A stretch of DNA of 32,000 bases from Methanothermobacter thermautotrophicus str. Delta H (GCF_000008645.1 NC_000916.1:30001-62000), one strand, 5' to 3'; shown: positions 10,384 to 30,524, counted from the first letter of the stretch. Numbers and translations: made by a program. Notes: generated by a model from the letters alone, not told the origin.

Positions 10384-10662
10384 TCAAATATATGGCATAG
10401 AAAGGAGAAGTACACCTATTAGGGACATTATAACAAAAAGTGTTTCGAGCACACCTTTTTCCTCGCCTCTAAACACCTTCTTCGACAGAAAATAGATTAG
10501 CAAAAACATATTTCCCAGTAAAAGACACGTTAACAATATAATAGGTAGTTCAGGCCTAGTATGCAGTAAAGCCAACCTACTACACGTAACAGTAAAACCA
10601 ACAAAATTGTAAAACACGATAACGACCCCAAAAAAATAAAAAAGCTTAGATGTATGCTGCAT
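10384..10662 (-). CDS. Small membrane ORF, family 2 (putative immunity-like partner of cassette E2)
   Basis: 92 aa with 3 hydrophobic helices. Its ATG is embedded in the last codons of the upstream cassette (gATGCAGCATACATCTAA). It is a paralogue of 18605..18883. Confidence 0.6.
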   Translation of the reverse strand: MQHTSKLFYFFGVVIVFYNFVGFTVTCSRLALLHTRPELPIILLTCLLLGNMFLLIYFLSKKVFRGEEKGVLETLFVIMSLIGVLLLSMPYI

Positions 10663-11042
10663 CCTCCCACCTCAAACTACCATCAGGATTCTTCGGTATT
10701 TCAATATAGTGTATACAATGATCCTCACCAACATAACTTCTCAACTCATAACCATAAATCCAGGTACGATGAATCGAAATATACTTCCAATATTCTTGGG
10801 GAAGATAATGAGTCCGTATCCTTAAAATCAAATCACCTTCAGCCACTATCACACTTATAAAACCCAAAGGACCCATAACAGCAGTGACACCGGCAACAGT
10901 TGCAATATCTAATATACCATGGAAAACATCCTCTAGAATGCATGTTTGGTGTTCTATGATGAATTCTTTGATATCGTCTGTGATGTTTAGGAGGCCTGTG
11001 TAGGCTATTATTGTTGCATATGCTGCCATGTTGAGTCCTATG
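10640..11042. repeat. ~0.4-kb near-identical repeat (partner 18861-19263, offset 8221); weaker similarity continues down to ~10140/18400
   Basis: Identical side-frame ORFs 10654..10860 and 18875..19081. One K/E difference in the cassette protein. Confidence 0.8.
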
Positions 11043-11426
11043 AGGCTGGCCCTACATAATCGAAAAAGAGGGTTTAGGATGGAAAGGTACATGGAGGTTA
11101 CAAAGCCCAATATAAGCCTTCTTAGTACTATCATCTAAACCTTCAAGGTTTACTGTGCCATTACCATCCAAGAGCGAATCTAACTTTTCAGATATTATGG
11201 CTTGGCCAAGTTCCCGAGCCCATTCTGTCTGTTGGTGGTAGTAGCAGTATGCTCCCATGAAAGCATAGATCATGTCCCTTACTATCCCTGTTGCATGGTC
11301 TATGATGAGGTATCTTCCCTGCCCGTCACTGATAAGCGTGTAATTCTCGCTTTCGAGGATGTTTAGTGACCCGCCGTTGAGGAGTGTTAGGCCTATTCCT
11401 GTTGTGTGGAGGTTTTGATCCTGGGA
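10646..11426 (-). pseudogene. Orphan C-terminal cassette E2 (5'-truncated copy of the large-protein C-terminus, internally frameshifted)
   Basis: It covers ORFs 11052..11273 (MIYAFMGAYCYYHQQTEWARELG..) and 10646..11134 (..LIGLNMAAYATIIAY..GEDHCIHYIEIPKNPDGSLRWEDAAYI). An extra T near 11100-11110 shifts the frame. There is no signal peptide and no N-terminal domains. Confidence 0.7.
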
Positions 11427-12183
11427 TTTGGGTTTATGGTTGATTTTTTTTGGATGGTGAGTTCTTTCAGGGCTTTTTTGGCTTTTTTGTATTCTGGGTC
11501 TATTTTCAGGGCTTTTTCATAGCATTTTAGTGCTTCTTTGTGTTTGCCGAGTTTTTGTAGTGTTTTTCCTTGCATGTACCATAGTGTTTTGTTTTGGGGG
11601 GTTTAGTTTGAGGGCTTTCTTGTAGCATTTCAGGGATTCCTCTGGTTTTTTGAGGTCTTCTAGGATTATGCCTTTCCATTTCCATGCATCGGCGAATTCG
11701 GGGTTTATTTCAAGGGCTTTTTGAAAGCATTCCAGCGCATCCTTATATTTTCCAAGTTCTTCGAGGACTAGTCCTTTGTTGTTCCATGTTTTGTCGTCTT
11801 CTGGATCTATTTCCAGGGCTTTTTCATAGCATTCTAGTGCCTCCTCATATCTCCCAAGTTCACTGAGGACTACTCCTTTGTTGTTCCATGCTTCTGCAAG
11901 TTTGGGGTTTATCTGTAATGCTTTTTCATAGCATTCTAGTGACTCATCATATCTCCCAAGTTCATTGAAAACTAGTCCTTTGTTGTTCCAAGCTTTATCA
12001 TCTTGTGGATTTAATTGGAGAACTTTGTCATAACATTTTAATGCTTCTTCATATATCTTAAGGTTATGTAATGTTATTCCTTTAGTTCCCCAAGCTCTAT
12101 AATTTTTTGGATTTAGCTCTATGGCTTTTTCGAAACATTTTAGTGCCTTTTTGTATTTTTTAAGGTAAATTAGAACGGAGCCT
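11131..12183. repeat. ~1.05-kb direct repeat (partner 21040-22092, offset 9909)
   Basis: Identical side-frame ORFs 11393/21302 and 11684/21593. Lines compared by eye at both ends. Confidence 0.8.
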
Positions 12184-12235
12184 TCCCCTAGCCATCCAAT
12201 CCTTTATTTTCTTAAGGGGGTTCATATTCCAGCCT
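11393..12235 (-). pseudogene. TPR gene remnant (internal deletion, in-frame stop, 3' frameshift)
   Basis: 11131-12183 matches 21040-22092 (offset 9909). At 12184 the sequence jumps straight to the TPR 5' end (..ccatccaatcctttattttcttaagggggttcat) with a tag stop. It carries the same G6 run frameshift (11596-11601) as the copy at 21505-21510. Confidence 0.65.
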
Positions 12236-12384: not shown

Positions 12385-12642
12385 TCATGTCTTAAGGATT
12401 CTAATCGTAAGAATTGCGAGCATCATTAGCCCAAAAATTCTGATCGCCTCTTGATGGCGAATTATCCAATCTTCTTTTTTTCTGAAAAAATACAATAAAA
12501 CGAAAAGGAGCCCCACGACTAACCAGTCAGTCAACTCAACCTTCGGGCTGTTTAAATATAACAGTTCAAGGAAAAAGATTATGAAAGTAACCATAAAAAG
12601 TATATCAAATTTTCTTTCACCTTTTTCAGACCTTTCAATCAT
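12385..12642 (-). CDS. Small membrane ORF (putative immunity-like partner of cassette F)
   Basis: 85 aa with 2-3 hydrophobic helices. RBS GAGGGG lies in the 18-nt gap after the cassette F stop. Confidence 0.5.
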   Translation of the reverse strand: MIERSEKGERKFDILFMVTFIIFFLELLYLNSPKVELTDWLVVGLLFVLLYFFRKKEDWIIRHQEAIRIFGLMMLAILTIRILKT

Positions 12643-12660: not shown

Positions 12661-13235
12661 CTAAATGTATATTGTTTCATTCTCTCTTAGCGTATCATCT
12701 GGATTTTTAGGAATCTCCTTGTAGTGTATACAATTATCCGCACCAATGTATGCTTCCAGTTTGTATCCATATATCGGGCCACGATGAAGGGATATATACT
12801 TCCAGTATTCCCTAGGTAGGTAATGATCCCTTATATTAAGAATCAAATCCCCTTCTGCAATAATACAAAAAACAAGGCTACAGTTGCCACAAAAGATCCT
12901 CCTTCTAACATAAAATAACAGCCACCAACCACACCTACTGCATCTAGAATATCCTTTGGGATGTATGTTTGATGTTCCACGATAAATTCTTTGATGCTAC
13001 CTGTAATGTTGTTGAGTTTGGAGTCTATGTAGGCTATTGTTGTTGCGTATGCTGCCATGTTAACTCTTATGAGGCCCTGACCCACCAGGCCATAACTGAT
13101 GATTTCCAAAGGTCATGGGATTGTGTGGGGCGGGTTGTATTGGGCTAATAAGGCCTCTTGAAGGCTTTTCTCGCGTTGTCCTTTAAGCCTTCAAAGGTTT
13201 GCTGTGCTGTTATCCTAAGAGTGACTTTAGCCTTT
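12661..13235 (-). pseudogene. Orphan C-terminal cassette F (decayed, several frameshifts)
   Basis: ORFs 12843..13109 and 12661..12846 join as ..AEGDLILNIRDHYLPREYWKYISLHRGPIYGYKLEAYIGADNCIHYKEIPKNPDD. Its 5' part is homologous to the copy-B region ERLKSLLDGNGTVNLEGL.. but is broken by stops. The motif residues are degenerate (ADNCIHY). Confidence 0.65.
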
Positions 13236-14438
13236 CATTTGGAGTTCTTTCAGGGCTTTTTTGGCTTTTTTGTATTCTGGGTCTATTTTCAGGGCTTTTT
13301 TGTAGGATTTTTTGGCTTTTTGGTGTTTTCCAAGTTTTTGTAGTGTTTTTCCTTGCATGTACCATAGTGTTTTGTCTTGGGGGTTTAGTTTGAGGGCTTT
13401 CTCGTAGCATTTCAGGGCTTCCTCTGGTTTTTTGAGGTCTTCCAGGATTATACCTTTCCATTCCCATGCATCGGCGAATTCTGGGTTTATTTCAAGGGCT
13501 TTTTCAAAACATTCCAGCGCCTCCTCATATTTTCCAAGTTTCCTGAGGAGTACTCCCTTGTTAGCCCATGTTTCGTCGTTTTCTAGGTTTATTTCTAAGG
13601 CTTTTTCATAGCATTCCAATGCCTCATCATATCTCTTAAGTTCTTCAAGGACTACTCCTTTGTTGTTCCATGCTTTTGCATTTTTTTGGTTTATTTCTAA
13701 GGCTTTTTCATAGCATTCTATTGCTTTTTCAGGTTTACCGATTGTGTCAAGGAGCGCTCCTTTGTTGTTCCATGTTCCATCGTCTTGTGGATCTATTTGT
13801 AGTGCCCTTCCATAGCATTCCAATGCCTCATCATATCTCTTAAGTTCTTCAAAAATTAGTGCTTTGTTGTACCATGCCTCTACGAATTCTGCGTTTATCT
13901 GTAATGCTTTTTCATAGCATTCCAATGCCTCCTCATATTTTCCGAGACTGCGTAATCCGTTACCTTTATTATACCATGCTTTTGCATTTTTTTGGTTTAT
14001 TTCTAAGGCTTTTTCATAGCATTCTATTGCTTTTTCAGGTTTACCGATTGTGTCAAGGAGCGCTCCTTTGTTGTTCCATGTTCCATCGTCTTGTGGATCT
14101 ATTTGTAGTGCCCTTTCATAGCATTCCAATGCCTCATCATATCTCTTAAGTTCTTTAAGGACTACTCCTTTGTTGTTCCATGCTTCTGCTAGTTTTGGAT
14201 TGTTTTTGAGGATTTTTTCATAACATTTTAAGGCTTTCTCTGGTCTTTTGAGTTTTAGTAGTGTCATTGCATTATAGTGCAAGATTTCCGGGTCGTTTGG
14301 ACTCGCCTTGAGGGCTTTCCTGAATTCTTTAAGAGCTTCTTTGTATTTTCCCTGTTTTAGGCTTGATCGGCCCCCGCTGAGGTGCCATCCAGCCTTTCCC
14401 CTGGCTATCCAATCCTTTATCTTCTTAAGGGGGTTCAT
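13227..14438 (-). CDS. TPR repeat protein (~11 TPR units), coupled to the upstream type-2 module
   Basis: 34-aa periodicity (..AWxNKGxxLxxLxRYDEALECYEKALxIxP..). ATGA start/stop overlap with 14435..15385. No catalytic domain. Confidence 0.8.
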   Translation of the reverse strand: MNPLKKIKDWIARGKAGWHLSGGRSSLKQGKYKEALKEFRKALKASPNDPEILHYNAMTLLKLKRPEKALKCYEKILKNNPKLAEAWNNKGVVLKELKRYDEALECYERALQIDPQDDGTWNNKGALLDTIGKPEKAIECYEKALEINQKNAKAWYNKGNGLRSLGKYEEALECYEKALQINAEFVEAWYNKALIFEELKRYDEALECYGRALQIDPQDDGTWNNKGALLDTIGKPEKAIECYEKALEINQKNAKAWNNKGVVLEELKRYDEALECYEKALEINLENDETWANKGVLLRKLGKYEEALECFEKALEINPEFADAWEWKGIILEDLKKPEEALKCYEKALKLNPQDKTLWYMQGKTLQKLGKHQKAKKSYKKALKIDPEYKKAKKALKELQMKG

Positions 14439-15385
14439 CCTCCAGCCTCTCTCAACTTCTTTTCTAGGTAGTTTTTGAATCCTAGTATGCAGGCTTCTAT
14501 TGTCTCACGATTCTCATAGGCTAATAGGCTTCCAATAGCCATCCCAGTGCCTATTACAGTACCTCCATGTTTTATGGCGCCCACGACATTCCCATCCTTT
14601 AAAGCCTCCTTGAACAGATCCCATTCATCCATCATGAGTTTACCTAAATTATTTATAGCCCTTCCTATATCGTCGGGATCGCCACCAACACCACCACTGC
14701 TAATCACCCTTAGAGTATCTACGGCTTCTCTATACTCATTTATCGCTTGACTCCATTCGTCAGACTGTCTTGATAGTATTTCAAGATAGTTTTGTATTGG
14801 TTGTGTGTCTCCTGTTAGTAGTGTGTAGGCGATGAATGTTGGCAGACCAGCGGGTGAGAGTAACATCATGGCATCTTCGATGTATGGGAGCCACTCAGGA
14901 TGTTCGATGAGGATATAAGCGACTATTGCAACAACTATTCCTATGCCAGCTGTCGCCGGCGCTGACAAGGCTCCTGCTTCGAGGATGGCGACTTCAGCTC
15001 CTCCTTCGAAGCCGACGACTTCAGCTCCTGAAACACCAGCAAATCCAATGAACTTCCACAAACCGGTCTCATTCAGTAGTTCTTTTGCGAGGTTGGCTGC
15101 CCATTCTGTCTGCAGGTGGCTGAAACAATATGCCCCCATAACATTCTTAAAGATATTGACATCCCTCACTATCCCTGTTGCAGTGTCGATGATCAGGTAG
15201 TCATTATCATAGTTTATTATGGTGTAGTTCCCAGCTTTTGTAATATTTAGTTTTTCTCCGTTCAGGAGCCTGTATGCTATGCTTGTGATCGCAGCACCTT
15301 CCATGATATCCCCTATATTGTCGAGGCTTCCATTGTATGGGAATAGGCGTTGCATTGAACTCTGAGGGGTTTGATGTCCCGACAA
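14435..15385 (-). CDS. Type-2 C-terminal module: junction block fused to a different Gly/Ala-rich hydrophobic C-terminus (likely start at ATG 15304)
   Basis: AITSIAYRLLNGEKLNITKAGNYTIINYDNDYLIIDTATGIVRDVNIFKNVMGAYCFSHLQTEWA aligns with the junction block of the 837/840-aa proteins. The rest (..ATAGIGIVVAIVAYILIEHPEWLPYIED..GGTVIGTGMAIGSLLAY..NYLEKKLREAGG) is unrelated to them. The listed start is TTG. ATG 15304 has TAGGGGAT 5 nt upstream. Confidence 0.6.
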   Translation of the reverse strand: MSGHQTPQSSMQRLFPYNGSLDNIGDIMEGAAITSIAYRLLNGEKLNITKAGNYTIINYDNDYLIIDTATGIVRDVNIFKNVMGAYCFSHLQTEWAANLAKELLNETGLWKFIGFAGVSGAEVVGFEGGAEVAILEAGALSAPATAGIGIVVAIVAYILIEHPEWLPYIEDAMMLLSPAGLPTFIAYTLLTGDTQPIQNYLEILSRQSDEWSQAINEYREAVDTLRVISSGGVGGDPDDIGRAINNLGKLMMDEWDLFKEALKDGNVVGAIKHGGTVIGTGMAIGSLLAYENRETIEACILGFKNYLEKKLREAGG

Positions 15386-15401: not shown

Positions 15402-15677
15402 TTATACCCCTGGAGATGCAATTAAACCCACTATAAGGAGCATTACCATCATCCATCTTATTTCATACTCTTTTTCCTTCAACTCGTAGTAGAGCCAGCA
15501 TAAAAGGAGAAGAGTGAACAAGCCTAAAGGGGCTGCTATTAGGGACAAAACATCACAATGATACTTAAGCGCAAGAATACATAGGAACATAACTATGCAG
15601 ATAAGAGGATAAGCCCTCTTATACCAAGATTCATAATCCAATAAGATCCCCTCCACTTTAGATATATACTGCTTCAT
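15402..15677 (-). CDS. Small membrane ORF, family 1 (DYES..EIRWM), putative immunity-like partner of large protein A (probable TTG start at 15641)
   Basis: 2-3 TM helices. GGAGGGG at 15648-15654 and TTG at 15641 reproduce the RBS/TTG arrangement of paralogues 20180..20425 and 23298..23534. It lies 16 nt after the protein A stop. Confidence 0.6.
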   Translation of the reverse strand: MKQYISKVEGILLDYESWYKRAYPLICIVMFLCILALKYHCDVLSLIAAPLGLFTLLLLCWLYYELKEKEYEIRWMMVMLLIVGLIASPGV

Positions 15678-18171
15678 CCCACCTCAAACTACCATCAGGA
15701 TTCTTCGGTATTTCAATATAGTGTATACAATGATCCTCACCAACATAACATCTCAACTCATAACCATCGTACCAGGAACGATGATACGATATATACTTCC
15801 AATACTCTTTTGGAAGATAATAATCTCTAAAGCTCAATATTTTATCACCAAACCACATACAAAACCCAATTGACCCTAATATCGCCCCAGCACCTCCTTT
15901 TGACACGTATCCAAAAACAGTAAGTAAAATATCTATAATGTCTTTTGGAATGTATGTTTGGTGTTCTATGATGAATTTTTTGATATCGTCTGTGATGTTT
16001 TGGAGGCTTGTGTAGGCTATTGTTGTTGCATATGCTGCCATGTTGAGTCCTATAAGTCCCTGACCCACAAGAGCATAATTGAGGATATCAACGAAAGCCA
16101 TTGGACCTTCCAGGGCAATGTACATGGAGATTACAAGGCCAATATAGGCCTTCTTGATACTATCATCTAAACCTTCAAGGTTTACTGTGCCATTACCATC
16201 CAAGAGCGAATCTAACTTTTCAGAGAATATTATGGCTTGGCCAAGTTCCCGGGCCCATTCTGTTTGTTGGTGGTAGTAGCAGTATGCTCCCATGAAAGCA
16301 TAGATCATGTCCCTTACTATCCCTGTTGCATGGTCTATGATGAGGTATCTTCCCTGCCCGTCACTGATAAGCGTGTAATTCCCGCTTTCGAGGATGTTTA
16401 GTGACCCGCCGTTGAGGAGTGTTAGGCCTATTCCTGTTGTGGGCGCGCTTGTGGGGTCTGATCCTGGGAAGAGGGCCTCCATCACATAGTATTCTATTGG
16501 ATTTATAGCTGATGTTCTCGCATAATTGAATGCTTTAATGTTTTCGGGTGTGCCTTCTGCTTTCACGGCCATGTTGTGGTTGCATTCGAGGCTTATCCAT
16601 GTCCCTGGGCTGTGGTCTCCTGCTGAGACCATCACTGGCATGGTCCTGGTCCATGTTACATTATAGCGCGTGGCTGCTTCTTCTGCGATGAGATCGTGGA
16701 GGTATATTACTTCAAGGCCTGTTAGGAATGTTCCGTGGGCTGCCTTTAATGGTCCGGGCTCGTATGTCCTGTTTAGCCACTTTTGTAATGTCTGGTTTGT
16801 TATCTTCCCTGTGGCGAGGGTGTAGGTTATGATGGCGTCGTAGTTGCTAGCCTCCCAGATGAGAGTGTCGTTTATTATGATATTGGGTCCTGTTTCTCCT
16901 GGTGGGTGTATGTATTGGCCGTTTGTGTAGAGTAGGAGGAGTGTTCTTGTTGATTTGTTCCCTGGGAATGTTATATTGGCTATTGTCACCTTTTCCTCGC
17001 CGGGATACTCCACACTGACCTGTAAAGGGTCTATGCACTTGTTATAGTTTGTGAGTATGAATATCTTTTCTGCCTGGGTTAAATTGAAGTTGTTGAGATA
17101 TTCATTCACTTGAGGTTCTGCTCCGAGTTTTGTGTAAATTTCTATGAGTCTGTTCAGGCCAGCTATGACTTGCCAGACTATTTCTCTTTGACTCTGGCTG
17201 TTAGCCTGGTAGAATGGGTTAGTGACCTCGGCTAGTTTGTATGCTATGCCATCCTCCACAAGGAATATTGTTTCATTGAATAGGCCCGAAGATATAGCCC
17301 CTATACTAATCCATTTAACCGTGTCATTGAGCGGAATTTTAAATGTTAAATTTAGGGGCTTCCCAGAGGATGTTGCCGTGGAATTAACATGGACCGTTGC
17401 AAGCATAACCTCCAATGTAATAGTCTTCGTGTCTGTTATGCCATAGCCTTGGACTGTTAGGGTTACTTTGTAGGTTCCTGGTTTGTAGGCGTGTACTGGA
17501 TTCTTCTGGGTGCTTGTGCTTTGGTCTCCGAAGTCCCATTTGTAGTATTGTATTGTCCCTGTACTTTTATCCTGGAATTGGACATTATAGCCTTGTATTG
17601 TGTAGGTGTAGTCTGCCCTTGGCCTTACTATAATTCCACCCTTACCTGTAACATATTCTACTGTTACATAGTTTGGTAGTCTTCCTGTGCTGTTGTAGAA
17701 GTTTATTATCCTTGCATTGGCATATATTAGGCTTTCTGGGCGGACTTGTCCAATGGCTGTGCTGGCATAATTCGGCGACCTCCCATAGGATTCCATGAAA
17801 GCCTTAACATTCTTTGCCACCTGCAAGTATCCTGCTTTTTGGAGTGTTCCTGTTCCTGTTCCACTTGGACTGGGCGGGGAGGCCATACTATTGAATGACA
17901 AGCCAACTCTCCTACCCTGATCGAGGTTTATGATGGTTGAGGATGAGGCGTAGAGGTAGTCGTCTGCCGACACATTCTTACCGTTAATCACAACCTGTGA
18001 TGGTATTTTTTCATGTTGTGCAGTGTAGTTTCCGATCAGCTTTGAAACGTCACAAATCTCATCATAGGATAAACTCACAGCTGAAGAACTGCCCAAAAGA
18101 CAGAAAAAGGACAGGATCGCCAGAAAAAACAACAACCTCCTCACAGCCACCACCATAATATGATAACACAT
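15658..18171 (-). CDS. Large secreted protein A: signal peptide, 2 pseudomurein-binding-like repeats, PKD domain, unassigned ~300-aa domain, junction block, variable hydrophobic C-terminus with a conserved His/Cys end module (polymorphic-toxin-like)
   Basis: 837-aa ORF. IGNYTAQHEKIPSQVVINGKNVSADDYLYASSSTI and VKAFMESYGRSPNYASTAIGQVRPESLIYANARII resemble PMBR repeats. YKWDFGDQSTSTQKNPVHAYKPGTYKVTLTV is a classic PKD signature. Residues 23-640 are identical to protein B. The start may be ATG 18156 (MVVAVRRLL). Confidence 0.7.
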   Translation of the reverse strand: MCYHIMVVAVRRLLFFLAILSFFCLLGSSSAVSLSYDEICDVSKLIGNYTAQHEKIPSQVVINGKNVSADDYLYASSSTIINLDQGRRVGLSFNSMASPPSPSGTGTGTLQKAGYLQVAKNVKAFMESYGRSPNYASTAIGQVRPESLIYANARIINFYNSTGRLPNYVTVEYVTGKGGIIVRPRADYTYTIQGYNVQFQDKSTGTIQYYKWDFGDQSTSTQKNPVHAYKPGTYKVTLTVQGYGITDTKTITLEVMLATVHVNSTATSSGKPLNLTFKIPLNDTVKWISIGAISSGLFNETIFLVEDGIAYKLAEVTNPFYQANSQSQREIVWQVIAGLNRLIEIYTKLGAEPQVNEYLNNFNLTQAEKIFILTNYNKCIDPLQVSVEYPGEEKVTIANITFPGNKSTRTLLLLYTNGQYIHPPGETGPNIIINDTLIWEASNYDAIITYTLATGKITNQTLQKWLNRTYEPGPLKAAHGTFLTGLEVIYLHDLIAEEAATRYNVTWTRTMPVMVSAGDHSPGTWISLECNHNMAVKAEGTPENIKAFNYARTSAINPIEYYVMEALFPGSDPTSAPTTGIGLTLLNGGSLNILESGNYTLISDGQGRYLIIDHATGIVRDMIYAFMGAYCYYHQQTEWARELGQAIIFSEKLDSLLDGNGTVNLEGLDDSIKKAYIGLVISMYIALEGPMAFVDILNYALVGQGLIGLNMAAYATTIAYTSLQNITDDIKKFIIEHQTYIPKDIIDILLTVFGYVSKGGAGAILGSIGFCMWFGDKILSFRDYYLPKEYWKYISYHRSWYDGYELRCYVGEDHCIHYIEIPKNPDGSLRWDEAVYI
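16252..18105. repeat. Long direct repeat, copy 1 (partner 24753-26606, offset 8501), apparently 100% identical
   Basis: The encoded proteins are identical. Three pairs of alternative-frame ORFs are also identical with the same offset (16847/25348, 17222/25723, 17491/25992). The boundary lines were compared by eye. Confidence 0.85.
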
Positions 18172-18222: not shown

Positions 18223-18604
18223 GGGATTTAAGACAAGAGCATGAATCCCATCATTACAAGCTTAAACAGGAAAAAATAGGCACTTACCATCCCCCCCAGA
18301 TGGGCAAAGAGAAACCTTATATTGCTGTCATAAAATGATTCTTGTTTACATAATGATTCTTGAGGAGTTTATTTTGTCATGCTTGAAAATAAAATATGTG
18401 GAGGCCGAGAAGAAAACTTTGATAGTCGCTTTTTTGGGAACCTGATATCCCCTTTTGGGTTTGTGTAGTGTGGTGTTTGATCCATTTTTAGGTTATTCTG
18501 GGAGGGGGGGATGAGATTGGAGGCTGCTATTTGGAGGCTAGAAATGTCCTGAGCCTCTTTATTTTGGTATTGGCTTGTTGGTTTGTTGTTGGGTTTAACG
18601 CTCC

Positions 18605-18883
18605 TCAATGATATAGCCGAGAAAGGAGAAGTACACCTACTAGGAGCATTATAACAAAAAGTGTTTCGATCACACCTTTTTCCTCGCCTCTGAACACCTT
18701 CTTCGACAGAAAATAGATTAGCAAAAACATATTTCCCAGTAAAAGACACGTTAACAATATAATAGGTAGTTCAGGCCTAGTAGGCAGTAAAGCCAACTTA
18801 CTACCCGTAAACAGTAAAACCAACAAAATTGTAAAACACGATAACGACCCCAAAAACTGAAAAAGCTTAGATGTATGCTGCAT
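18605..18883 (-). CDS. Small membrane ORF, family 2 (putative immunity-like partner of cassette E1)
   Basis: 92 aa. It shares RPELPIILLTCLLLGNMFLLIYFLSKKVFRGEEKGV with 10384..10662. Its ATG is embedded in the cassette's last codons. Confidence 0.6.
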   Translation of the reverse strand: MQHTSKLFQFLGSLSCFTILLVLLFTGSKLALLPTRPELPIILLTCLLLGNMFLLIYFLSKKVFRGEEKGVIETLFVIMLLVGVLLLSRLYH

Positions 18884-19274
18884 CCTCCCACCTCAAACTA
18901 CCATCAGGATTCTTCGGTATTTCAATATAGTGTATACAATGATCCTCACCAACATAACTTCTCAACTCATAACCATAAATCCAGGTACGATGAATCGAAA
19001 TATACTTCCAATATTCTTGGGGAAGATAATGAGTCCGTATCCTTAAAATCAAATCACCTTCAGCCACTATCACACTTATAAAACCCAAAGGACCCATAAC
19101 AGCAGTGACACCGGCAACAGTTGCAATATCTAATATACCATGGAAAACATCCTCTAGAATGCATGTTTGGTGTTCTATGATGAATTTTTTGATATCGTCT
19201 GTGATGTTTAGGAGGCCTGTGTAGGCTATTATTGTTGCATATGCTGCCATGTTGAGTCCTATAAATCCCTCCAC
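18867..19274 (-). CDS. Orphan C-terminal cassette E1 (5'-truncated; no ATG, listed start is GTG inside ..LVEGFIG..)
   Basis: ..EGFIGLNMAAYATIIAYTGLLNITDDIKKFIIEHQTCILEDVFHGILDIATVAGVTAVMGPLGFISVIVAEGDLILRIRTHYLPQEYWKY..GEDHCIHYIEIPKNPDGSLRWEDAAYI. Homology to the full-length genes begins only at ~19295. Confidence 0.7.
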   Translation of the reverse strand: MEGFIGLNMAAYATIIAYTGLLNITDDIKKFIIEHQTCILEDVFHGILDIATVAGVTAVMGPLGFISVIVAEGDLILRIRTHYLPQEYWKYISIHRTWIYGYELRSYVGEDHCIHYIEIPKNPDGSLRWEDAAYI

Positions 19275-19404: not shown

Positions 19405-19647
19405 TTATGCAAGGCCAAAGAAGCCTATAATTACAAGCAAGCCTCCAAGTGCTCTGACAGTTTCATTTTCAGTTTTTCCCAACTCATCCTTGCCTAATAG
19501 GTAAATTAAGAGAAACATGTTCACTATGTAAATGGAATAGACAATTAATTTGCTGATAATATAGGGGAAACGGAGACTAACCACAACCAATGCAGCAGTA
19601 AAATAAGAAAGGAAATAACTAAAATAAAAAATGTACTTTACCATCAT
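19405..19647 (-). CDS. Small membrane ORF, distant family 2 (putative immunity-like partner of cassette D)
   Basis: 80 aa, 3 hydrophobic helices. It shares NMFLLIYLLGK with family 2. RBS AGGAGGA lies in the 13-nt gap after the cassette D stop. Confidence 0.55.
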   Translation of the reverse strand: MMVKYIFYFSYFLSYFTAALVVVSLRFPYIISKLIVYSIYIVNMFLLIYLLGKDELGKTENETVRALGGLLVIIGFFGLA

Positions 19648-19660
19648 ATCATCCTCCTAA

Positions 19661-20164
19661 TCAGATATACACTGCTTCATCCCATCTTAAAGTACCATCT
19701 GGGTTCTTTGGGATTTCAATGTAGTGTATGCAATGGTCTTCGCCAACATAAATTTTAAGTTCATAACCATGCCGCCAAGTTCTATGGTAAGAAACATATT
19801 TCCAATATTCAGTTGGAAGATAATTCGTTCTTACATTCACAATTAAATCACCTTCTGCTAATAGTAGAGAAGCAATCGAAAAAATACCACTTGCCAAGGT
19901 GACACCTTCACTACTAAGCTCTTTTAAACTCCATATAAAAAGAATCCCATCTATAATGTCCCCTCCAATGCATGTTTGGTGTTCTATGATGAATTTTTTG
20001 ATATCGTCTGTGATGTTTAGGAGGCCTGTGTAGGCTATTATTGTTGCATATGCTGCCATGTTGAGTCCTATGAGGCTGGCCCTACATAATCGAAAAAGAG
20101 GGTTTAGGATGGAAAGGTACATGGAGGTTACAAAGCCCAATATAAGCCTTCTTAGTACTATCAT
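19661..20164 (-). CDS. Orphan C-terminal cassette D (5'-truncated; the first ~10 listed residues are an out-of-frame artefact)
   Basis: The core GGDIIDGILFIWSLKELSSEGVTLASGIFSIASLLLAEGDLIVNVRTNYLPTEYWKY is unique. The end module is conserved. DNA homology (..LDGNSTVNLEGLDDSTKKAYIG) starts at ~20200, overlapping the preceding ORF's 3' end. It has the same extra-T frameshift as E2. Confidence 0.7.
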   Translation of the reverse strand: MIVLRRLILGFVTSMYLSILNPLFRLCRASLIGLNMAAYATIIAYTGLLNITDDIKKFIIEHQTCIGGDIIDGILFIWSLKELSSEGVTLASGIFSIASLLLAEGDLIVNVRTNYLPTEYWKYVSYHRTWRHGYELKIYVGEDHCIHYIEIPKNPDGTLRWDEAVYI

Positions 20165-20179: not shown

Positions 20180-20425
20180 TTACAGTGCTGTTGCCATCCA
20201 GGAAAAGGACGAGCCTACTACAAAGGTTATGGCCATTAACCATCGTATTTCATCCTCTCTTTCCTTCAATTTGAATTGGAGCCAGAATAGAAGAGAAAAA
20301 ATGAACAAGCCTAAAAGGTCTGCTATTGGAATCAAACCATTAAAATGTTTAATTCCAATGGAAAATAAAATAATATCGAGACAAAGAAGGGAATAAAGTA
20401 TATCGAGCAAAGATTCATAATCCAA
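20180..20425 (-). CDS. Small membrane ORF, family 1 (TTG start, RBS AGGAGGTG at 20433-20440)
   Basis: 81 aa. DYESLLD..EDEIRWLM is paralogous to 15402..15677 and 23298..23534. A decayed cassette-end remnant (~20446-20485) lies directly upstream. Confidence 0.6.
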   Translation of the reverse strand: MDYESLLDILYSLLCLDIILFSIGIKHFNGLIPIADLLGLFIFSLLFWLQFKLKEREDEIRWLMAITFVVGSSFSWMATAL

Positions 20426-20464: not shown

Positions 20465-20554
20465 TTAGGGTTCGTTTGAGAATTTTAGCCCCATATAGTT
20501 GCCGCGGATCGTAAAATACGCCAAAAACTGAAAAAGCTTAGATGTATACTGCAT
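20465..20554 (-). pseudogene. Truncated family-2 membrane ORF remnant after cassette C
   Basis: MQYTSKLFQFL.. starts inside the last codons of cassette C exactly as in E1/E2, then diverges and stops after 29 codons. Confidence 0.45.
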
Positions 20555-21182
20555 CCTCCCACCTCAAACTACCATCAGGATTCTTCGGTATTTCAATATA
20601 GTGTATACAATGATCCTCACCAACATAACTTCTCAACTCATAACCATAAATCCAGGTACGATGAATCGAAATATACTTCCAATATTCTTGGGGAAGATAA
20701 TGATCTCTAAATGTAAGTATGCCATCACCTATCCGCATACACCATCCAATTGGTTGAAATATTTCACCACCATACCTTACTAACACATATGCCAAAACCT
20801 GGATCAAACAGTGAGCAGTATCTTCTGAGATGTATGTTTGGTGTTCTATGATGAATTTTTTGATATCGTCTGTGATGTTTAGGAGGCTTGTGTAGGCTAT
20901 TATTGTTGCATATGCTGCCATGTTGAGTCCTATAAATCCCTCCACAAGAGCATAATTGAGGATATCAACGAAAGCCATTGGACCTTCCAGGGCAATGTAC
21001 ATGGAGATTACAAGGCCAATATAAGCCTTCTTGATACTATCATCTAAACCTTCAAGGTTTACTGTGCCATTACCATCCAAGAGCGAATCTAACTTTTCAG
21101 ATATTATGGCTTGGCCAAGTTCCCGAGCCCATTCTGTCTGTTGGTGGTAGTAGCAGTATGCTCCCATGAAAGCATAGATCAT
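20538..21182 (-). CDS. Orphan C-terminal cassette C (homology extends 5' to ~21335; no N-terminal domains)
   Basis: The in-frame upstream extension reads TTGIGLTLLNGGSLNILESENYTLISDGQGRYLIIDHATGIVRD-MIYAFMG... The unique core is SEDTAHCLIQVLAYVLVRYGGEIFQPIGWCMRIGDGILTFRDHYLP. The end module is identical to that of E1/E2. Confidence 0.7.
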   Translation of the reverse strand: MIYAFMGAYCYYHQQTEWARELGQAIISEKLDSLLDGNGTVNLEGLDDSIKKAYIGLVISMYIALEGPMAFVDILNYALVEGFIGLNMAAYATIIAYTSLLNITDDIKKFIIEHQTYISEDTAHCLIQVLAYVLVRYGGEIFQPIGWCMRIGDGILTFRDHYLPQEYWKYISIHRTWIYGYELRSYVGEDHCIHYIEIPKNPDGSLRWEDAVYI

Positions 21183-21425
21183 GTCCCTTACTATCCCTGT
21201 TGCATGGTCTATGATGAGGTATCTTCCCTGCCCGTCACTGATAAGCGTGTAATTCTCGCTTTCGAGGATGTTTAGTGACCCGCCGTTGAGGAGTGTTAGG
21301 CCTATTCCTGTTGTGTGGAGGTTTTGATCCTGGGATTTGGGTTTATGGTTGATTTTTTTTGGATGGTGAGTTCTTTCAGGGCTTTTTTGGCTTTTTTGTA
21401 TTCTGGGTCTATTTTCAGGGCTTTT

Positions 21426-23534: not shown

Positions 23535-23549
23535 AAAAGACCCTTCTCA

Positions 23550-23640
23550 CTAACAATATACTGCTTCATCCCACCGTAGAGTACCATCAGGGTTCTTCGG
23601 CATTCCATGTTGTATGCAATGGGATCCTTCATACTGAAGT
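23550..23640 (-). pseudogene. Stub of a cassette 3' end (last ~28 codons only)
   Basis: It reads YEGSHCIQHGMPKNPDGTLRWDEAVYC*, compared with YVGEDHCIHYIEIPKNPDGTLRWDEAVYI*. It abuts the stop of 23629..24045. Confidence 0.6.
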
Positions 23641-24149: not shown

Positions 24150-26672
24150 TTAAATATATACTGCTTCATCCCACCGTAGAGTACCATCAGGGTCCTTCGG
24201 TATTTCAATATAGTGTATACAATGATCCTCACCAACATAAGCCCTAAGCTCATAACCATGAGCCCATGTACGATGATATGCAATATATTTCCAATATTCC
24301 TCTGGGAGATAATGATCCCTAAAATCGAGTATCCCATTGCCTATAGCCATACACAAACCAACTGGCTGAAGTATTACCCCACCACCAGATTTCGATAATA
24401 CATATATTACTGCTGGAAGCATATATTCAACAAAATCATTTGAAATGTATGTTTGATGTTCCACGATAAATTCTTTGATGCTGCCTGTAATGTTGTTGAG
24501 TTTGGAGTTTATGTAGGCTATTGTTGTTGCGTATGCTGCTATGTTAACTCCTATGAGGCCCTGACCCACCAAGCCATAACTGATGATTTCAACAAAGGTC
24601 ATGGGGTTATGTAGGGCGAGTCGCATTGAAACTATAAGACCCATGAAGGCTTTTCCCACACTATCCCTTAAACCTTCAAGATTTACTGTGCCATTACCAT
24701 CCAAGAGTGACTTTAACCTTTCAGAGGACATTATGGTTCGGCCAAGTTCTTGGGCCCATTCTGTTTGTTGGTGGTAGTAGCAGTATGCTCCCATGAAAGC
24801 ATAGATCATGTCCCTTACTATCCCTGTTGCATGGTCTATGATGAGGTATCTTCCCTGCCCGTCACTGATAAGCGTGTAATTCCCGCTTTCGAGGATGTTT
24901 AGTGACCCGCCGTTGAGGAGTGTTAGGCCTATTCCTGTTGTGGGCGCGCTTGTGGGGTCTGATCCTGGGAAGAGGGCCTCCATCACATAGTATTCTATTG
25001 GATTTATAGCTGATGTTCTCGCATAATTGAATGCTTTAATGTTTTCGGGTGTGCCTTCTGCTTTCACGGCCATGTTGTGGTTGCATTCGAGGCTTATCCA
25101 TGTCCCTGGGCTGTGGTCTCCTGCTGAGACCATCACTGGCATGGTCCTGGTCCATGTTACATTATAGCGCGTGGCTGCTTCTTCTGCGATGAGATCGTGG
25201 AGGTATATTACTTCAAGGCCTGTTAGGAATGTTCCGTGGGCTGCCTTTAATGGTCCGGGCTCGTATGTCCTGTTTAGCCACTTTTGTAATGTCTGGTTTG
25301 TTATCTTCCCTGTGGCGAGGGTGTAGGTTATGATGGCGTCGTAGTTGCTAGCCTCCCAGATGAGAGTGTCGTTTATTATGATATTGGGTCCTGTTTCTCC
25401 TGGTGGGTGTATGTATTGGCCGTTTGTGTAGAGTAGGAGGAGTGTTCTTGTTGATTTGTTCCCTGGGAATGTTATATTGGCTATTGTCACCTTTTCCTCG
25501 CCGGGATACTCCACACTGACCTGTAAAGGGTCTATGCACTTGTTATAGTTTGTGAGTATGAATATCTTTTCTGCCTGGGTTAAATTGAAGTTGTTGAGAT
25601 ATTCATTCACTTGAGGTTCTGCTCCGAGTTTTGTGTAAATTTCTATGAGTCTGTTCAGGCCAGCTATGACTTGCCAGACTATTTCTCTTTGACTCTGGCT
25701 GTTAGCCTGGTAGAATGGGTTAGTGACCTCGGCTAGTTTGTATGCTATGCCATCCTCCACAAGGAATATTGTTTCATTGAATAGGCCCGAAGATATAGCC
25801 CCTATACTAATCCATTTAACCGTGTCATTGAGCGGAATTTTAAATGTTAAATTTAGGGGCTTCCCAGAGGATGTTGCCGTGGAATTAACATGGACCGTTG
25901 CAAGCATAACCTCCAATGTAATAGTCTTCGTGTCTGTTATGCCATAGCCTTGGACTGTTAGGGTTACTTTGTAGGTTCCTGGTTTGTAGGCGTGTACTGG
26001 ATTCTTCTGGGTGCTTGTGCTTTGGTCTCCGAAGTCCCATTTGTAGTATTGTATTGTCCCTGTACTTTTATCCTGGAATTGGACATTATAGCCTTGTATT
26101 GTGTAGGTGTAGTCTGCCCTTGGCCTTACTATAATTCCACCCTTACCTGTAACATATTCTACTGTTACATAGTTTGGTAGTCTTCCTGTGCTGTTGTAGA
26201 AGTTTATTATCCTTGCATTGGCATATATTAGGCTTTCTGGGCGGACTTGTCCAATGGCTGTGCTGGCATAATTCGGCGACCTCCCATAGGATTCCATGAA
26301 AGCCTTAACATTCTTTGCCACCTGCAAGTATCCTGCTTTTTGGAGTGTTCCTGTTCCTGTTCCACTTGGACTGGGCGGGGAGGCCATACTATTGAATGAC
26401 AAGCCAACTCTCCTACCCTGATCGAGGTTTATGATGGTTGAGGATGAGGCGTAGAGGTAGTCGTCTGCCGACACATTCTTACCGTTAATCACAACCTGTG
26501 ATGGTATTTTTTCATGTTGTGCAGTGTAGTTTCCGATCAGCTTTGAAACGTCACAAATCTCATCATAGGATAAACTCACAGCTGAAGAACTGCCCAAAAG
26601 ACAGAAACAAGAGAGGATTGCCAGAAGAAACAATAACCTCCTCACAGCCACCACCATAATATGATAACACAT
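24150..26672 (-). CDS. Large secreted protein B: same N-terminal 640 aa as protein A, different C-terminal core (polymorphic-toxin-like)
   Basis: 840-aa ORF. From ..TEWA it diverges: QELGRTIMSSERLKSLL..SNDFVEYMLPAVIYVLSKSGGGVILQPVGLCMAIGNGILDFRDHYLPEEYWKYIAYHRTWAHGYELRAYVGEDHCIHYIEIPKDPDGTLRWDEAVYI. Confidence 0.7.
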   Translation of the reverse strand: MCYHIMVVAVRRLLFLLAILSCFCLLGSSSAVSLSYDEICDVSKLIGNYTAQHEKIPSQVVINGKNVSADDYLYASSSTIINLDQGRRVGLSFNSMASPPSPSGTGTGTLQKAGYLQVAKNVKAFMESYGRSPNYASTAIGQVRPESLIYANARIINFYNSTGRLPNYVTVEYVTGKGGIIVRPRADYTYTIQGYNVQFQDKSTGTIQYYKWDFGDQSTSTQKNPVHAYKPGTYKVTLTVQGYGITDTKTITLEVMLATVHVNSTATSSGKPLNLTFKIPLNDTVKWISIGAISSGLFNETIFLVEDGIAYKLAEVTNPFYQANSQSQREIVWQVIAGLNRLIEIYTKLGAEPQVNEYLNNFNLTQAEKIFILTNYNKCIDPLQVSVEYPGEEKVTIANITFPGNKSTRTLLLLYTNGQYIHPPGETGPNIIINDTLIWEASNYDAIITYTLATGKITNQTLQKWLNRTYEPGPLKAAHGTFLTGLEVIYLHDLIAEEAATRYNVTWTRTMPVMVSAGDHSPGTWISLECNHNMAVKAEGTPENIKAFNYARTSAINPIEYYVMEALFPGSDPTSAPTTGIGLTLLNGGSLNILESGNYTLISDGQGRYLIIDHATGIVRDMIYAFMGAYCYYHQQTEWAQELGRTIMSSERLKSLLDGNGTVNLEGLRDSVGKAFMGLIVSMRLALHNPMTFVEIISYGLVGQGLIGVNIAAYATTIAYINSKLNNITGSIKEFIVEHQTYISNDFVEYMLPAVIYVLSKSGGGVILQPVGLCMAIGNGILDFRDHYLPEEYWKYIAYHRTWAHGYELRAYVGEDHCIHYIEIPKDPDGTLRWDEAVYI
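24753..26606. repeat. Long direct repeat, copy 2 (partner 16252-18105)
   Basis: See copy 1. Confidence 0.85.
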
Positions 26673-29127: not shown

Positions 29128-29583
29128 TTAATAATGCTTTTGATGGCTTTTCTCAGTCTTTGGATCAGTTACTGGTCTTTTGATGATTAGCACTGTAAAG
29201 ACGATATATGCGGCGGCGGTTACTGTAAGCGCGACGCATGTGGCCCCCACAACATTTTTGTTGATGGGTGTTTTTGTGAGGATGGCATTTGTTAAACCTA
29301 TGAGGTTGAATCCCAGTGTGAACAGCGCGCTGATCAGTAGTGTCCTGGTAAGGCAATGATCATAGCATCCACCAAGACCTTTGATAACCCTATTCAAACC
29401 GGTCATGTACAGTATAACCATGACATCTAAAATGAGGATATAAGCTGCTGAATTAATAGCGTTTCCTGAGACAATATAGAAGAATGGGGCCAGCTCATCC
29501 CCCTGCATCCACCCTGATAAAACTACAGCCGCGCTTATGGCAAAAACCGCCAGCAACGTTAATATAAACATTTTATCTTTCAT
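29128..29583 (-). CDS. 4-TM ORF directly downstream of the C39-cargo gene (putative immunity-like)
   Basis: 151 aa. RBS GAGGAG lies 8 nt upstream of the ATG, in a 36-nt gap after the upstream stop. Confidence 0.55.
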   Translation of the reverse strand: MKDKMFILTLLAVFAISAAVVLSGWMQGDELAPFFYIVSGNAINSAAYILILDVMVILYMTGLNRVIKGLGGCYDHCLTRTLLISALFTLGFNLIGLTNAILTKTPINKNVVGATCVALTVTAAAYIVFTVLIIKRPVTDPKTEKSHQKHY

Positions 29584-29619: not shown

Positions 29620-30189
29620 TTAGTATTCTACATAATGTATACAGTGATCACGCCCCAAGTATGCTTTCACTCTTTTATTTGGCGGGTGATATGCACAGTA
29701 TTTCCAGTACTTTCGCGGCACATACTTATCCCTGACAGTGACTATTATATTACCCAAACCATATAATGTAATAGGAAGCCACCACAACTTGCCTCTAATG
29801 TTCTGCATTTCCTCTGTGCTGAGGATTTTAGCTGAGTCTGTGCCTTGTATTGGCTGATCTGTTGAGATATTCATTGGATTCATTTCATGTTCTGTCTGGT
29901 TGTCTGATGCCGTTCTGTTTTCCATTGCTTCTGTGTTATCACTGCTCTTGATTATGAGGGCGTATCCTGTGTAGATTTCTTGGAATTCTTCCAGTGACAT
30001 TTCTATGTTTCCCATGGTGGGGTCTGCTAGTTTAACGGTTTCATTGTTGACTTCCCTGATGAGGGTGTAGTGTCCCACACCATCACTCATTGTATATGCG
30101 ATCATGTTCTCGTGGAGTTCTGTGATGTTCAGTTTCATGCCTGTCATGTTAACGCCCTTGGCCTTTGCCGCCTCCAGGAGGCCCTGCAT
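29620..30189 (-). CDS. C39-type cysteine peptidase, C-terminal fragment (His/Asp half) + linker + leader-like motif + cargo with the YWKY..DHCIHY end module
   Basis: The frame is open upstream to ~30290 (GINTTEDELADLAGTTEEGTT-MQGLLEAAKAKGVNMTG..). VGHYTLIREVNNETVKLADPTMGNIEMSLEEFQEIYTGYALII follows the C39 His/Asp layout. Next comes ..ILSTEEMQNIRGK-LWWLPITLYGLGNIIVTVRDKYVPRKYWKYCAYHPPNKRVKAYLGRDHCIHYVEY. Confidence 0.75.
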   Translation of the reverse strand: MQGLLEAAKAKGVNMTGMKLNITELHENMIAYTMSDGVGHYTLIREVNNETVKLADPTMGNIEMSLEEFQEIYTGYALIIKSSDNTEAMENRTASDNQTEHEMNPMNISTDQPIQGTDSAKILSTEEMQNIRGKLWWLPITLYGLGNIIVTVRDKYVPRKYWKYCAYHPPNKRVKAYLGRDHCIHYVEY

Positions 30190-30245
30190 TGTTGTACCCT
30201 CTTCTGTGGTGCCGGCGAGGTCTGCGAGTTCATCCTCGGTTGTGT

Positions 30246-30524
30246 TTATTCCAAGGTTTGGAGTAGTGTGGCGAGTGCTGCCGGTCCGCAGGTGTAGTTC
30301 CTGGTCTGCAGGACCACGCCGGTGTTATCTGCTGTGATGTTATCGTCTATAGTGAACTCTGCTGGATCCGTGAAGTTCTCTTCCAAGTTATCTGCTGTGG
30401 ATAAGTCCATGGGATTCGTGGAGTTACTGCTGTTATCCCGTGGGGTTTGTGCGGCCGCAGCAGCGTTAAAAGATACTGCGAGTGTTAAGAGGATCAGCAA
30501 ACCCAAAAGACACGACTTTCTCAT
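30246..30524 (-). CDS. C39-type cysteine peptidase, N-terminal fragment (signal peptide + Gln/Cys half)
   Basis: MRKSCLLGLLILLTLAVSFNAAAAA is a signal peptide. VLQTRNYTCGPAALATLLQTL is the Q..CG.A.L catalytic-Cys motif. It stops at ..QTLE*, where one more G would give ..QTLGINTTEDEL. Confidence 0.75.
   Translation of the reverse strand: MRKSCLLGLLILLTLAVSFNAAAAAQTPRDNSSNSTNPMDLSTADNLEENFTDPAEFTIDDNITADNTGVVLQTRNYTCGPAALATLLQTLE

Follow-up and report, generated by a model that had tools for sequence, protein, structure and literature searches.

A conserved C-terminal module shared by candidate polymorphic surface toxins and C39 peptidase-cargo proteins of Methanobacteriales

The 32,000-nucleotide stretch of the Methanothermobacter thermautotrophicus str. 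Delta H genome analysed here (NC_000916.1:30001-62000; "the window") carries repeated copies of a C-terminal module of about 60 amino acids that closes proteins otherwise unrelated to one another. On balance, the module is probably what is conserved at the core of a small toxin unit that targets membranes and that Methanobacteriales employ in two delivery systems. In this unit a Gly-rich hydrophobic helix would lead into an aromatic motif beside the membrane (R-x-x-Y-(L/V)-P-x-E-Y-W-K-Y) and then into a β-hairpin. One delivery system would be made of large surface polymorphic toxins, built from a signal peptide, pseudomurein-binding repeats, a PKD domain or β-helix, a junction and swappable cassettes; the other would be made of secreted C39 peptidases, each joined in one polypeptide to a double-glycine-like leader and an exchangeable cargo.

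To check the copies we combined translations of open reading frames (ORFs), alignment and a profile scan of the six-frame translation of the window. These bear out the nine copies that an original prediction, made from the sequence, had claimed: seven full modules of about 60 amino acids, one short form at the end of a C39 protein, and one remnant. Each full module scores 114-122 bits in the scan (independent E-values of 1e-36 to 1e-39). All relevant genes lie on the minus strand, and the plus-strand translation of 15658-15831 is meaningless. The copies are as follows.

15661-15840 (15658..15840 with the stop), minus strand: module copy A, 60 amino acids plus stop, ILSFRDYYLPKEYWKYISYHRSWYDGYELRCYVGEDHCIHYIEIPKNPDGSLRWDEAVYI; C-terminus of the 837-amino-acid toxin A
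24153-24332 (24150-24332 with the end of toxin B), minus strand: module copy B, from the profile scan
20541-20720 (20538-20720 in orphan cassette C), minus strand: module copy C, from the profile scan
19664-19843 (19661-19843 in orphan cassette D), minus strand: module copy D, from the profile scan
18870-19049 (18867-19049 in orphan cassette E1), minus strand: module copy E1, from the profile scan
10649-10828 (10646-10828 in orphan cassette E2), minus strand: module copy E2, identical in DNA to E1
12664-12843 (12661-12843 in orphan cassette F), minus strand: module copy F, of the ADNCIHY subfamily
29623-29745, minus strand: short module at the end of the C39 protein, 59 bits in the profile scan
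23556-23621, minus strand: module-end remnant, reading HCIQHGMPKNPDGTLRWDEAVY, 21.8 bits

Seventeen columns are invariant across the eight aligned window copies, and alignment upholds the earlier consensus for copies A-E. The conserved order is a Gly-rich hydrophobic helix, the R-x-x-Y-(L/V)-P-x-E-Y-W-K-Y motif and a β-hairpin; across the family the Gly just before the module, P10, W14 and E43 are nearly invariant. The proposal that hydrophobic helix, R-x-x-Y-(L/V)-P-x-x-Y-W-K-Y and hairpin form one unit, common to the toxins and the otherwise unrelated C39 protein, also held. A hydrophobic segment precedes the module in every copy and every homologue. Because this segment, which is Gly-rich, is only moderately hydrophobic (below 1.6 on the Kyte-Doolittle scale in A, B, C and the C39 protein), "transmembrane helix" is an approximation. 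The statement that decayed copies lose exactly the conserved residues is right in part; the ADNCIHY state of copy F is not decay, being normal in a subfamily with apparently intact toxin ORFs elsewhere. At the DNA level the remnant is 85% identical to 24156-24229, and self-BLAST places the duplicated stretch, about 70 nucleotides long, at 23556-23628.

Judged from its sequence, the window has the anatomy of a polymorphic toxin locus (template PMC3482391), with two full-length genes and a series of cassettes truncated at a shared junction.

15658..18171, minus strand: toxin A, full length, 837 amino acids; Pfam PMBR (pseudomurein-binding repeat) 1e-26, PKD_4 7.5e-14
24150..26672, minus strand: toxin B, full length, 840 amino acids; 93% DNA identity to A overall, with a diverging C-terminal region
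16252..16323, minus strand: junction motif GIVRDMIYAFMGAYCYYHQQTEWA, the boundary between the constant N-terminal part and the alternative C-terminal cassettes
15949..16044, minus strand: conserved upstream block NMAAYATTIAY..FIIEHQTYI; synonymous divergence (dS) 0-0.05 among A, C, D and E1; self-BLAST
15841..15948, minus strand: variable Gly-rich hydrophobic segment of toxin A (PKDIIDILLTVFGYVSKGGAGAILGSIGFCMWFGDK); non-synonymous divergence (dN) about equal to dS, about 1, between cassettes
20538..21182, minus strand: orphan cassette C, 214 amino acids, beginning exactly at the junction (MIYAFMGAYCYY..)
19661..20164, minus strand: orphan cassette D, 167 amino acids; module DNA the most diverged, protein still conserved
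18867..19274, minus strand: orphan cassette E1, from ORF translation and profile scan
10646..11134, minus strand: orphan cassette E2, part of a segmental duplication
12661..13109, minus strand: orphan cassette F, a pseudogene frameshifted inside the variable segment

Toxin A runs from a signal peptide through three pseudomurein-binding repeats, a PKD domain, a central region and the junction to a C-terminal region of about 200 amino acids that ends in the module. Toxins A and B each match three PMBR repeats (1e-26) and PKD (7.5e-14) in Pfam, which places the window in the Methanobacteriales; the signal-like hydrophobic N-terminus of both was read from the sequence. At the junction, which reads ..GIVRD..GAYCYYHQQTEWA in A, a swappable cassette of about 200 amino acids begins. 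The motif is common to A, B, orphan C, the ORFs at 14435-15385 and 22562-23164, and homologues P0003, P0010, P0019 and L007, and orphans C, D, E1, E2 and F begin at or just past it. Swapping of the C-terminus at this shared junction is also seen in L007 and L014, and the layout of full toxins followed by junction-started orphans recurs in Methanobacterium sp. UBA375. Cassette F is frameshifted at 12840-12870 (minus strand), near a T run and upstream of its module; metagenome loci L026 and L027 show the same out-of-frame read-through upstream of the module, so the frameshift is apparently genuine, not a sequencing error, and F a pseudogene.

Two further cassettes at this junction lack the module. 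Those at 14435-15385 and 22562-23164 (minus strand) have ..GIVRD..GAYCxxHxQTEWA in common but bear no resemblance to the module-type C-terminus beyond it; each has one strongly hydrophobic segment and an unrelated tail of about 150 amino acids. Each is overlapped by a long TPR-repeat gene with no signal peptide (13227-14438 and 21426-22565, minus strand), whose product is possibly a cytoplasmic immunity protein for a cell-entering toxin.

The second carrier of the module is a gene encoding a C39 peptidase, a leader and a cargo.

29620..30524, minus strand: C39 peptidase-leader-cargo gene; Pfam Peptidase_C39 (PF03412) 6.6e-17
30450-30524, minus strand: signal peptide, within 29620..30524
30261-30296, minus strand: catalytic Cys motif YTCGPAALA
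30058-30075, minus strand: catalytic His motif GHYTLI; LADP is also present
29788-29823, minus strand: leader-like LSTEEMQNIRGK, followed by the hydrophobic helix
29734-29787, minus strand: hydrophobic helix, 18 amino acids, followed by the short module at 29623-29733

In the window this gene is split into two ORFs by the loss of one nucleotide in a G run (near 30246-30250, TTGG-AATA). Its intact counterpart, P0045 (297 amino acids), has an identical C-terminus and reads ..LLQKLGINTTEDELADLAG.. at the break; the split may be a sequencing error, a site prone to slippage or a frameshift that truly inactivates the gene. A signal peptide of its own, and a linker rich in sequons (NxS/T motifs) between the C39 domain and the leader-like motif, make it probable that the peptidase is extracellular. 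Double-glycine leaders follow the consensus LSxxELxxIxGG, and LSTEEMQNIRGK is in register with it at L, S, E, L/M, I and G, with K/R replacing the last G.

Comparison among C39 proteins suggests what the helix and module are doing in this position. A search with P0013 returned 64 standalone C39 proteins, and all the named ones are from Methanobacteriales (Methanothermobacter, Methanothermus and Methanobacterium). Such proteins are 230-420 amino acids long and have signal peptides; no ABC transporter domain was found in the C39 proteins or in the genes examined in the window, L012 and L033, a survey that took in part of the window's ORFs. The motif L(S/T)xEEMQxIxG(K/R) is present in 43 of 68 inspected Methanobacteriales C39 proteins and is followed by at least 12 unrelated cargo types, the helix and short module being the cargo in 10 of these proteins, two of them from Methanothermobacter genomes. 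P0013 and P0046, for example, are 78% identical through the leader and completely different beyond it, and L012 and L033 (Methanothermobacter sp. KEPCO 2) hold tandem C39-cargo genes, each with a different cargo and its own membrane-protein gene. In other paralogues the same slot holds a soluble, non-hydrophobic cargo or only a few residues. This alternation of cargo behind the leader argues for a second polymorphic system in which helix and module take the effector slot. It and the surface-toxin system occur independently: no C39 domain was detected near L007, and L012 and L033 have no large toxin. The module had been offered as an effector, an insertion or translocation element, or a recognition tag. 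Of these, effector fits best, given the C39 cargo slot, the position at the end of a polymorphic toxin and the membrane gene that follows each copy.

Two free peptide genes in the window carry the same leader. Those at 28795-29067 and 27581-27808 (minus strand) encode the leader ..LSTEEMQKIIGK and then a Trp/Tyr/Lys-rich cargo (NWKYRLKKKGKWHG..WWTYT), with the leader truncated in the second copy, and each is followed by a multi-pass membrane gene (28390-28758 and 27204-27599, minus strand). The bacteriocin leader model TIGR01847 aligns in the right place on the peptide at 28795-29067, below threshold (12.3 bits; cutoff 15.7), and is its only NCBIfam match. In P0053, P0058 and P0087 a cargo of this type is joined straight to a C39 peptidase. 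Four Methanobacterium C39 fusions (P0070, P0071, P0081 and P0100) have tandem leader-like motifs before the cargo, for example LTTEEMEIIKGQ...LTAEEMQTIRGK, which suggests two cleavage sites or a spacer peptide.

Each module-type cassette in the window is followed by a gene for a protein of 80-92 amino acids with two or three membrane passes, and the C39 gene by a four-pass protein; these are candidate immunity proteins.

15402..15677, minus strand: candidate immunity protein after A, 91 amino acids, three-pass, overlapping the toxin A stop; hydropathy and family alignment
20180..20425, minus strand: candidate immunity protein after C, 81 amino acids, 44% identical to the one after A
19405..19647, minus strand: candidate immunity protein after D, 80 amino acids; hydropathy and family alignment
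18605..18883, minus strand: candidate immunity protein after E1, 92 amino acids; E2 counterpart at 10384-10662
12385..12642, minus strand: candidate immunity protein after F, 85 amino acids; hydropathy and family alignment
29128..29583, minus strand: candidate immunity protein after the C39-module gene, 151 amino acids, four-pass; homologues in L012 and L033

The pairing extends to 25 related loci, where nearly every intact module ORF has a membrane protein of 78-126 amino acids at -20 to +107 nucleotides downstream, with two or three passes and a shared architecture of two transmembrane segments, a charged loop and a further transmembrane segment. Locus L015 has a membrane protein identical to the partner of A, after a near-identical cassette. 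Homologues of 29128-29583 lie behind module-cargo C39 genes (E 4e-24 in L012; E 2e-19 in Methanothermobacter sp. KEPCO 2), and the four-pass partner of the short-module cargo is conserved in three lineages. Over 15 distinct toxin-partner pairs, partner identity tracks the identity of the variable helix (Spearman 0.30, p 0.002; a modest statistic from non-independent pairs), and its correlation with module identity is 0.10 (p 0.31); among modules that share at least 75% identity, partner identity ranges from 14 to 100%. This fits, and would support, a membrane partner that reads the variable helix and not the module.

What kind of structure the module forms was approached by prediction. The AlphaFold2 (AF2) model of the last 85 amino acids of toxin A, made with 27 aligned sequences, has a mean predicted local distance difference test score (pLDDT) of 84.5 overall and above 90 over the module; the whole 215-amino-acid C-terminal region was modelled poorly (pLDDT 46.5), and the 85-residue model was used. 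In this model a helix of 26 residues extends from the Gly-rich segment through ..SFRDYY; after a kink at L-P come the short helix KEYWKY, a β-hairpin (YELRCYV / IHYIEIPK) whose turn holds H37 and C38, and a short final strand. Foldseek found nothing significant in the PDB or BFVD. At the sequence level, module positions 18-55 align with each of the blades, about 40 amino acids long, of PQQ-like propellers; the stretch SYHRSW..YVGEDHCIHYIEIPKNPDGSLRW corresponds to the blade SVHSSPAIG.DGTIYVGS.DH.LYAINPDG.LKW. The matches among PDB sequences, at about 10 bits per blade, include v31Bagel8, Cake, Scone, two-blade "cell surface protein" fragments and 3hxj; hhalign gives module versus blade a probability of 95% over 23 columns, and a blade profile scores at least 8 bits on 10 of 20 modules versus 1 of 6000 shuffles. 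Each protein has one blade-like unit and not the tandem blades of a propeller, and we take the resemblance as a lead for self-association, not as family membership.

Propeller fragments are known to self-assemble into rings (10.1101/2021.04.12.439409; PMC7337062), with at least two blades suggested by the Pizza work as the minimum for assembly (PMC7337062). It is conceivable, if decidedly doubtful, that the module is a natural single-blade fragment of a PQQ-type propeller joined to a membrane helix, and that six to nine toxins close a ring of blades on the membrane surface, which bundles their helices into a pore. If true, this would be a toxin with a one-blade propeller as its oligomerisation device and a living "single-blade ancestor", which to our knowledge has so far been made only by protein engineering. 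In any case, the blade-like hairpin raises the question of how propeller repeats get reused.

The family is small and confined. Nothing above threshold was found in Pfam, NCBIfam, PHROG or PADLOC for the module, the 215-amino-acid C-terminal region or the partner proteins; with no significant fold match either, the module is unnamed, as had been claimed. Word-indexed protein search with the module profile gave only one to three proteins and an exhaustive profile search was needed, which returned 44 matches from 1.84 billion representative proteins. About 25 of these are true relatives with a single stretch, all from clusters of Methanobacterium or Methanothermobacter, and the remainder are multi-blade PQQ-like propellers. 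The true relatives fall into three groups: large toxins that share the central region and junction, orphan cassettes, and C39 fusions. The large toxins, such as P0010 (1602 amino acids) and L007 (1474 amino acids, Methanobacterium sp. UBA375), have N-termini with PMBR, Ig-like or β-helix/NosD domains. Genome and metagenome scans gave 5 and 20 loci, and the named genomes are Methanobacterium metagenome-assembled genomes, apart from one contig binned as Anaerolineales. No module match was found by tblastn in plasmid and phage collections, and in the proteins, genomes and metagenomes searched the module was seen only on conflict-type proteins. The Anaerolineales contig (L011, CAZMAI010000128.1, binned as an uncultured Anaerolineales bacterium) encodes a 1889-amino-acid toxin with a divergent module and a QCPIP extension; because it is identical over the compared region to a contig of Methanobacterium sp. 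PtaU1.Bin242 (L010), its label is probably a binning error. Some homologues (L010/L011, P0019 and P0039) have an extension of about 35 amino acids past the module that ends in QCPIP or ECLIPL, and others end in GGSDTT; the module is not always the extreme C-terminus.

The pattern of substitution separates three zones of the cassette: the upstream block, the hydrophobic segment and the module. The hypervariable part is the Gly-rich hydrophobic segment of about 40 amino acids, in which dN and dS are both about 1. The module has a dN/dS of 0.05-0.2, and wherever cassette D is one of the pair compared, its synonymous sites are saturated or nearly so; what keeps the module is therefore selection on the protein, not gene conversion. 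The reverse view, in which module conservation is a by-product of DNA (a recombination handle homogenised by gene conversion, encoding a peptide without function), seems to us scarcely credible. It can point to cassettes lying in a segmentally duplicated region, to the identity of E1 and E2, and to module DNA that is 86-93% identical among A, C and E. However, about 25 synonymous sites over 60 codons separate cassette D from A and B, with the protein still about 78% identical (dN/dS about 0.05), and conservation of the module extends to distant genomes and to the C39 proteins, where the DNA is dissimilar. The truly near-identical DNA is the upstream block, which is probably the recombination handle. 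Gene conversion as the sole source of module conservation is refuted by the synonymous and non-synonymous pattern.

The module had also been read as a small metal site, from the spacing H..DHCxH. A zinc-binding or catalytic effector domain built on such a site is, in our estimate, very improbable. All intact window copies and the C39 copy keep H20, H37, C38 and H40, and H20 and H40 are kept in most family members; however, of 39 distinct family sequences only about 15 (13 long-form and 2 short-form) retain the whole D-H-C-x-H group. H/C/H residues are thus lost in homologues, the observation that the original prediction had itself named as telling against a metal site. Variants include DNCIH, DNYIH, DG-IY, DGYMY, DNHVY, DHTIH and LNGVWY, with DH(K/L/R)IH in close C39 relatives; in place of the Cys stands K, R, L, T, Y, H, V or M, while the first His gives way to N or G and the second to Y. 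Several such variants occur in long, apparently intact toxins with a partner gene (DDGIYY in L007, of 1474 amino acids; EDNCIHY in L014). In addition, there is no match to a metal-binding or enzyme family in the databases searched, and H37 and C38 fall in the hairpin turn of the AF2 secondary structure. A family-wide site can therefore be rejected, the ligands not being conserved across the 39 sequences; the alignment suggests that His and Cys are structural residues of one subfamily's hairpin, which may still hold a structural metal of its own.

How would such a unit act? After export, and in the C39 system after release by the C39 domain, the helix would insert in the cytoplasmic membrane of a neighbouring methanogen and place the aromatic motif at the membrane interface. 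The blade-like hairpin would hold copies together or dock them, so that the helices damage or permeabilise the membrane; the module itself may thus serve in oligomerisation, docking or translocation. The producer would be protected by the downstream multi-pass membrane protein, which would recognise the variable helix and not the module. Several points weigh against this proposal. The unit has no homology to any toxin of known mechanism, toxicity and membrane target rest on context, and the co-variation that links partner to helix is modest. The hydrophobic segment could equally be a stop-transfer anchor that leaves the module in the producer's cytoplasm. The blade resemblance amounts to about 10 bits per blade, with no PQQ-family Pfam match on the window proteins at E<0.1, and the AF2 monomer has a two-stranded hairpin and one further short strand where a blade would have four strands; Foldseek finds no propeller for it. 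The net charge of the module, about -3 in the long form and about +6 in the short form, argues against a simple electrostatic role in membrane binding. Finally, an earlier description is possible, as the literature comparison that found no such unit drew on sources other than the 2019 mBio survey of archaeal toxins.

The stop-transfer possibility leads to a different account, which we consider unlikely: the helix holds the surface protein or C39 peptidase in the membrane of the cell that makes it, and the module, as a folded tail on the cytoplasmic side, contacts a common intracellular or membrane partner with a part in sorting, retention, signalling or self-recognition. The downstream membrane proteins would then be partner subunits, not immunity proteins. 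Both carrier classes do have an N-terminal signal peptide and a single hydrophobic helix near the C-terminus, the AF2 helix of 26 residues is long enough to span a bilayer, the module is conserved and the helix variable, and the short form is strongly basic past the helix, as the positive-inside rule expects. However, the long form is net acidic, and in A, B, C and the C39 protein the hydrophobicity of the helix is marginal. Paralogues with soluble cargo or almost nothing in its place indicate that the C39 domain can do without an anchor of this kind, and the unit behaves as a cassette exchanged at recombination junctions, of which orphan copies accumulate. No PGF-CTERM- or PEF-CTERM-type archaeosortase signal, nor any other sorting or anchoring model, matches in NCBIfam or Pfam, a match that the original prediction had named as weakening its reading; 37-60 folded residues follow the helix, and in some homologues 10-40 more follow the module. 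A generic sorting tag was rejected on the absence of a sorting-model match and the soluble cargo that alternates in the same C39 slot.

A further account changes only the role of the module within the toxin unit and is, to our mind, more doubtful again than the anchor: the module would recognise a conserved receptor or other component of the target methanogen, and the variable helix alone would do the damage. An invariant module beside a diversifying helix and partner gene is what a fit to a conserved target would give, and AF2 predicts a compact mini-domain with confidence. LsbB-type leaderless bacteriocins, whose conserved C-terminal motif binds a receptor, set a precedent. Against this, the large toxins can already target cells through their pseudomurein-binding repeats, the architecture persists in the short form even though the last third of the module is missing there, and no candidate receptor was identified.

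Large segmental duplications of 82-93% identity (10135-12184 versus 18388-19262 and 20523-22093; 13242-14910 versus 21368-23025) carry a cassette, a partner gene and TPR genes, and a 60-amino-acid ORF is identical at 11393-11575 and 21302-21484. Between the toxin B stop and the duplicated module end lies a 138-amino-acid multi-pass membrane gene (23629-24045, minus strand), and after that module end a gene resembling the A/C partner (23298-23534, minus strand). The region (23298-24150, minus strand) looks like an insertion or cassette replacement with duplicated module ends on either side; metagenome locus L018 has the same arrangement. Elsewhere, a DUF2769 Cys-rich protein (31443-31754, minus strand) lies just upstream of the C39 gene, and a zinc-dependent phospholipase C-like protein (2752-3336, minus strand) in the housekeeping flank.

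We know of very few weapons used between archaea and of none characterised for pseudomurein-walled methanogens. The unit described here is a candidate native anti-methanogen toxin, with candidate immunity proteins and two delivery vehicles. Methanothermobacter thermautotrophicus and its relatives are genetically tractable, and the short form is present in this cultured species and its relatives, which makes the prediction directly testable. If toxicity is confirmed, the module would add a toxin domain of archaeal origin to the polymorphic-toxin repertoire, the C39 protein would be a case of peptidase, leader and exchangeable cargo joined in cis, and the unit could offer leads for the specific inhibition of methanogens.

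Parts of this picture can be set beside known systems. Archaeal C39 and double-glycine "dark matter" loci (arCOG10864) have been described as abundant in Methanobacteriales genomic islands, with duplicated double-glycine-leader genes predicted to be bacteriocin-like or to act in quorum sensing, and with C39 peptidases possibly associated with pseudomurein-binding domains (PMC4158269; PMC6393860, Fig. 2E). The portions of PMC4158269 and PMC6393860 that deal with these loci do not describe the helix-module unit, its sharing with surface toxins or the in-cis fusion of leader and cargo. The class II bacteriocins and microcins, with the C39 domains of their peptidase-containing ABC transporters, resemble the second system in the catalytic Cys and His motifs, LADP at the position of the third catalytic residue, a leader consensus with which the leader-like LSTEEMQNIRGK is in register, small cationic, aromatic or hydrophobic cargo, and an adjacent membrane gene of immunity type. 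In contrast, one polypeptide here combines peptidase, leader and cargo and starts with a signal peptide, K/R stands in place of G/A/S at the end of the leader, and no ABC transporter was found among the window genes examined.

Pore-forming colicins have immunity proteins with three or four membrane passes, and a hydrophobic helical segment sets which immunity protein protects, the rest of the domain being conserved. Pairing of a variable hydrophobic helix with a small multi-pass membrane partner would be a functional analogy to this; however, there is no Pfam colicin match and no Foldseek match, and the unit has 55-100 amino acids compared with about 200. The blades of PQQ-like and BamB-type propellers (PF13360 and PF13570; 3hxj; the designed Cake, Scone and Bagel) are similar to about residues 18-55 of the module, each aligning as one blade of about 40 amino acids, with the difference that here a single blade-like unit, with a four-residue insertion, stands alone.

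The closest overall parallel in layout is with polymorphic toxins such as CdiA-CT/CdiI and Rhs-CT/RhsI (PMC3482391). Like these, the system has a large secreted multi-domain protein with surface-binding repeats, a conserved junction followed by a swappable C-terminus, an immunity-like gene directly downstream, and arrays of 5′-truncated orphan C-terminal cassettes, each with its own downstream gene. Unlike these, its N-terminal modules are archaeal (pseudomurein-binding repeats), no type V, VI or VII secretion system is involved, and the module has no relative among catalogued toxin domains. In addition, the hypervariable part, about 40 hydrophobic amino acids, is internal and lies between two conserved blocks, and the extreme C-terminus is the most conserved part of the cassette.

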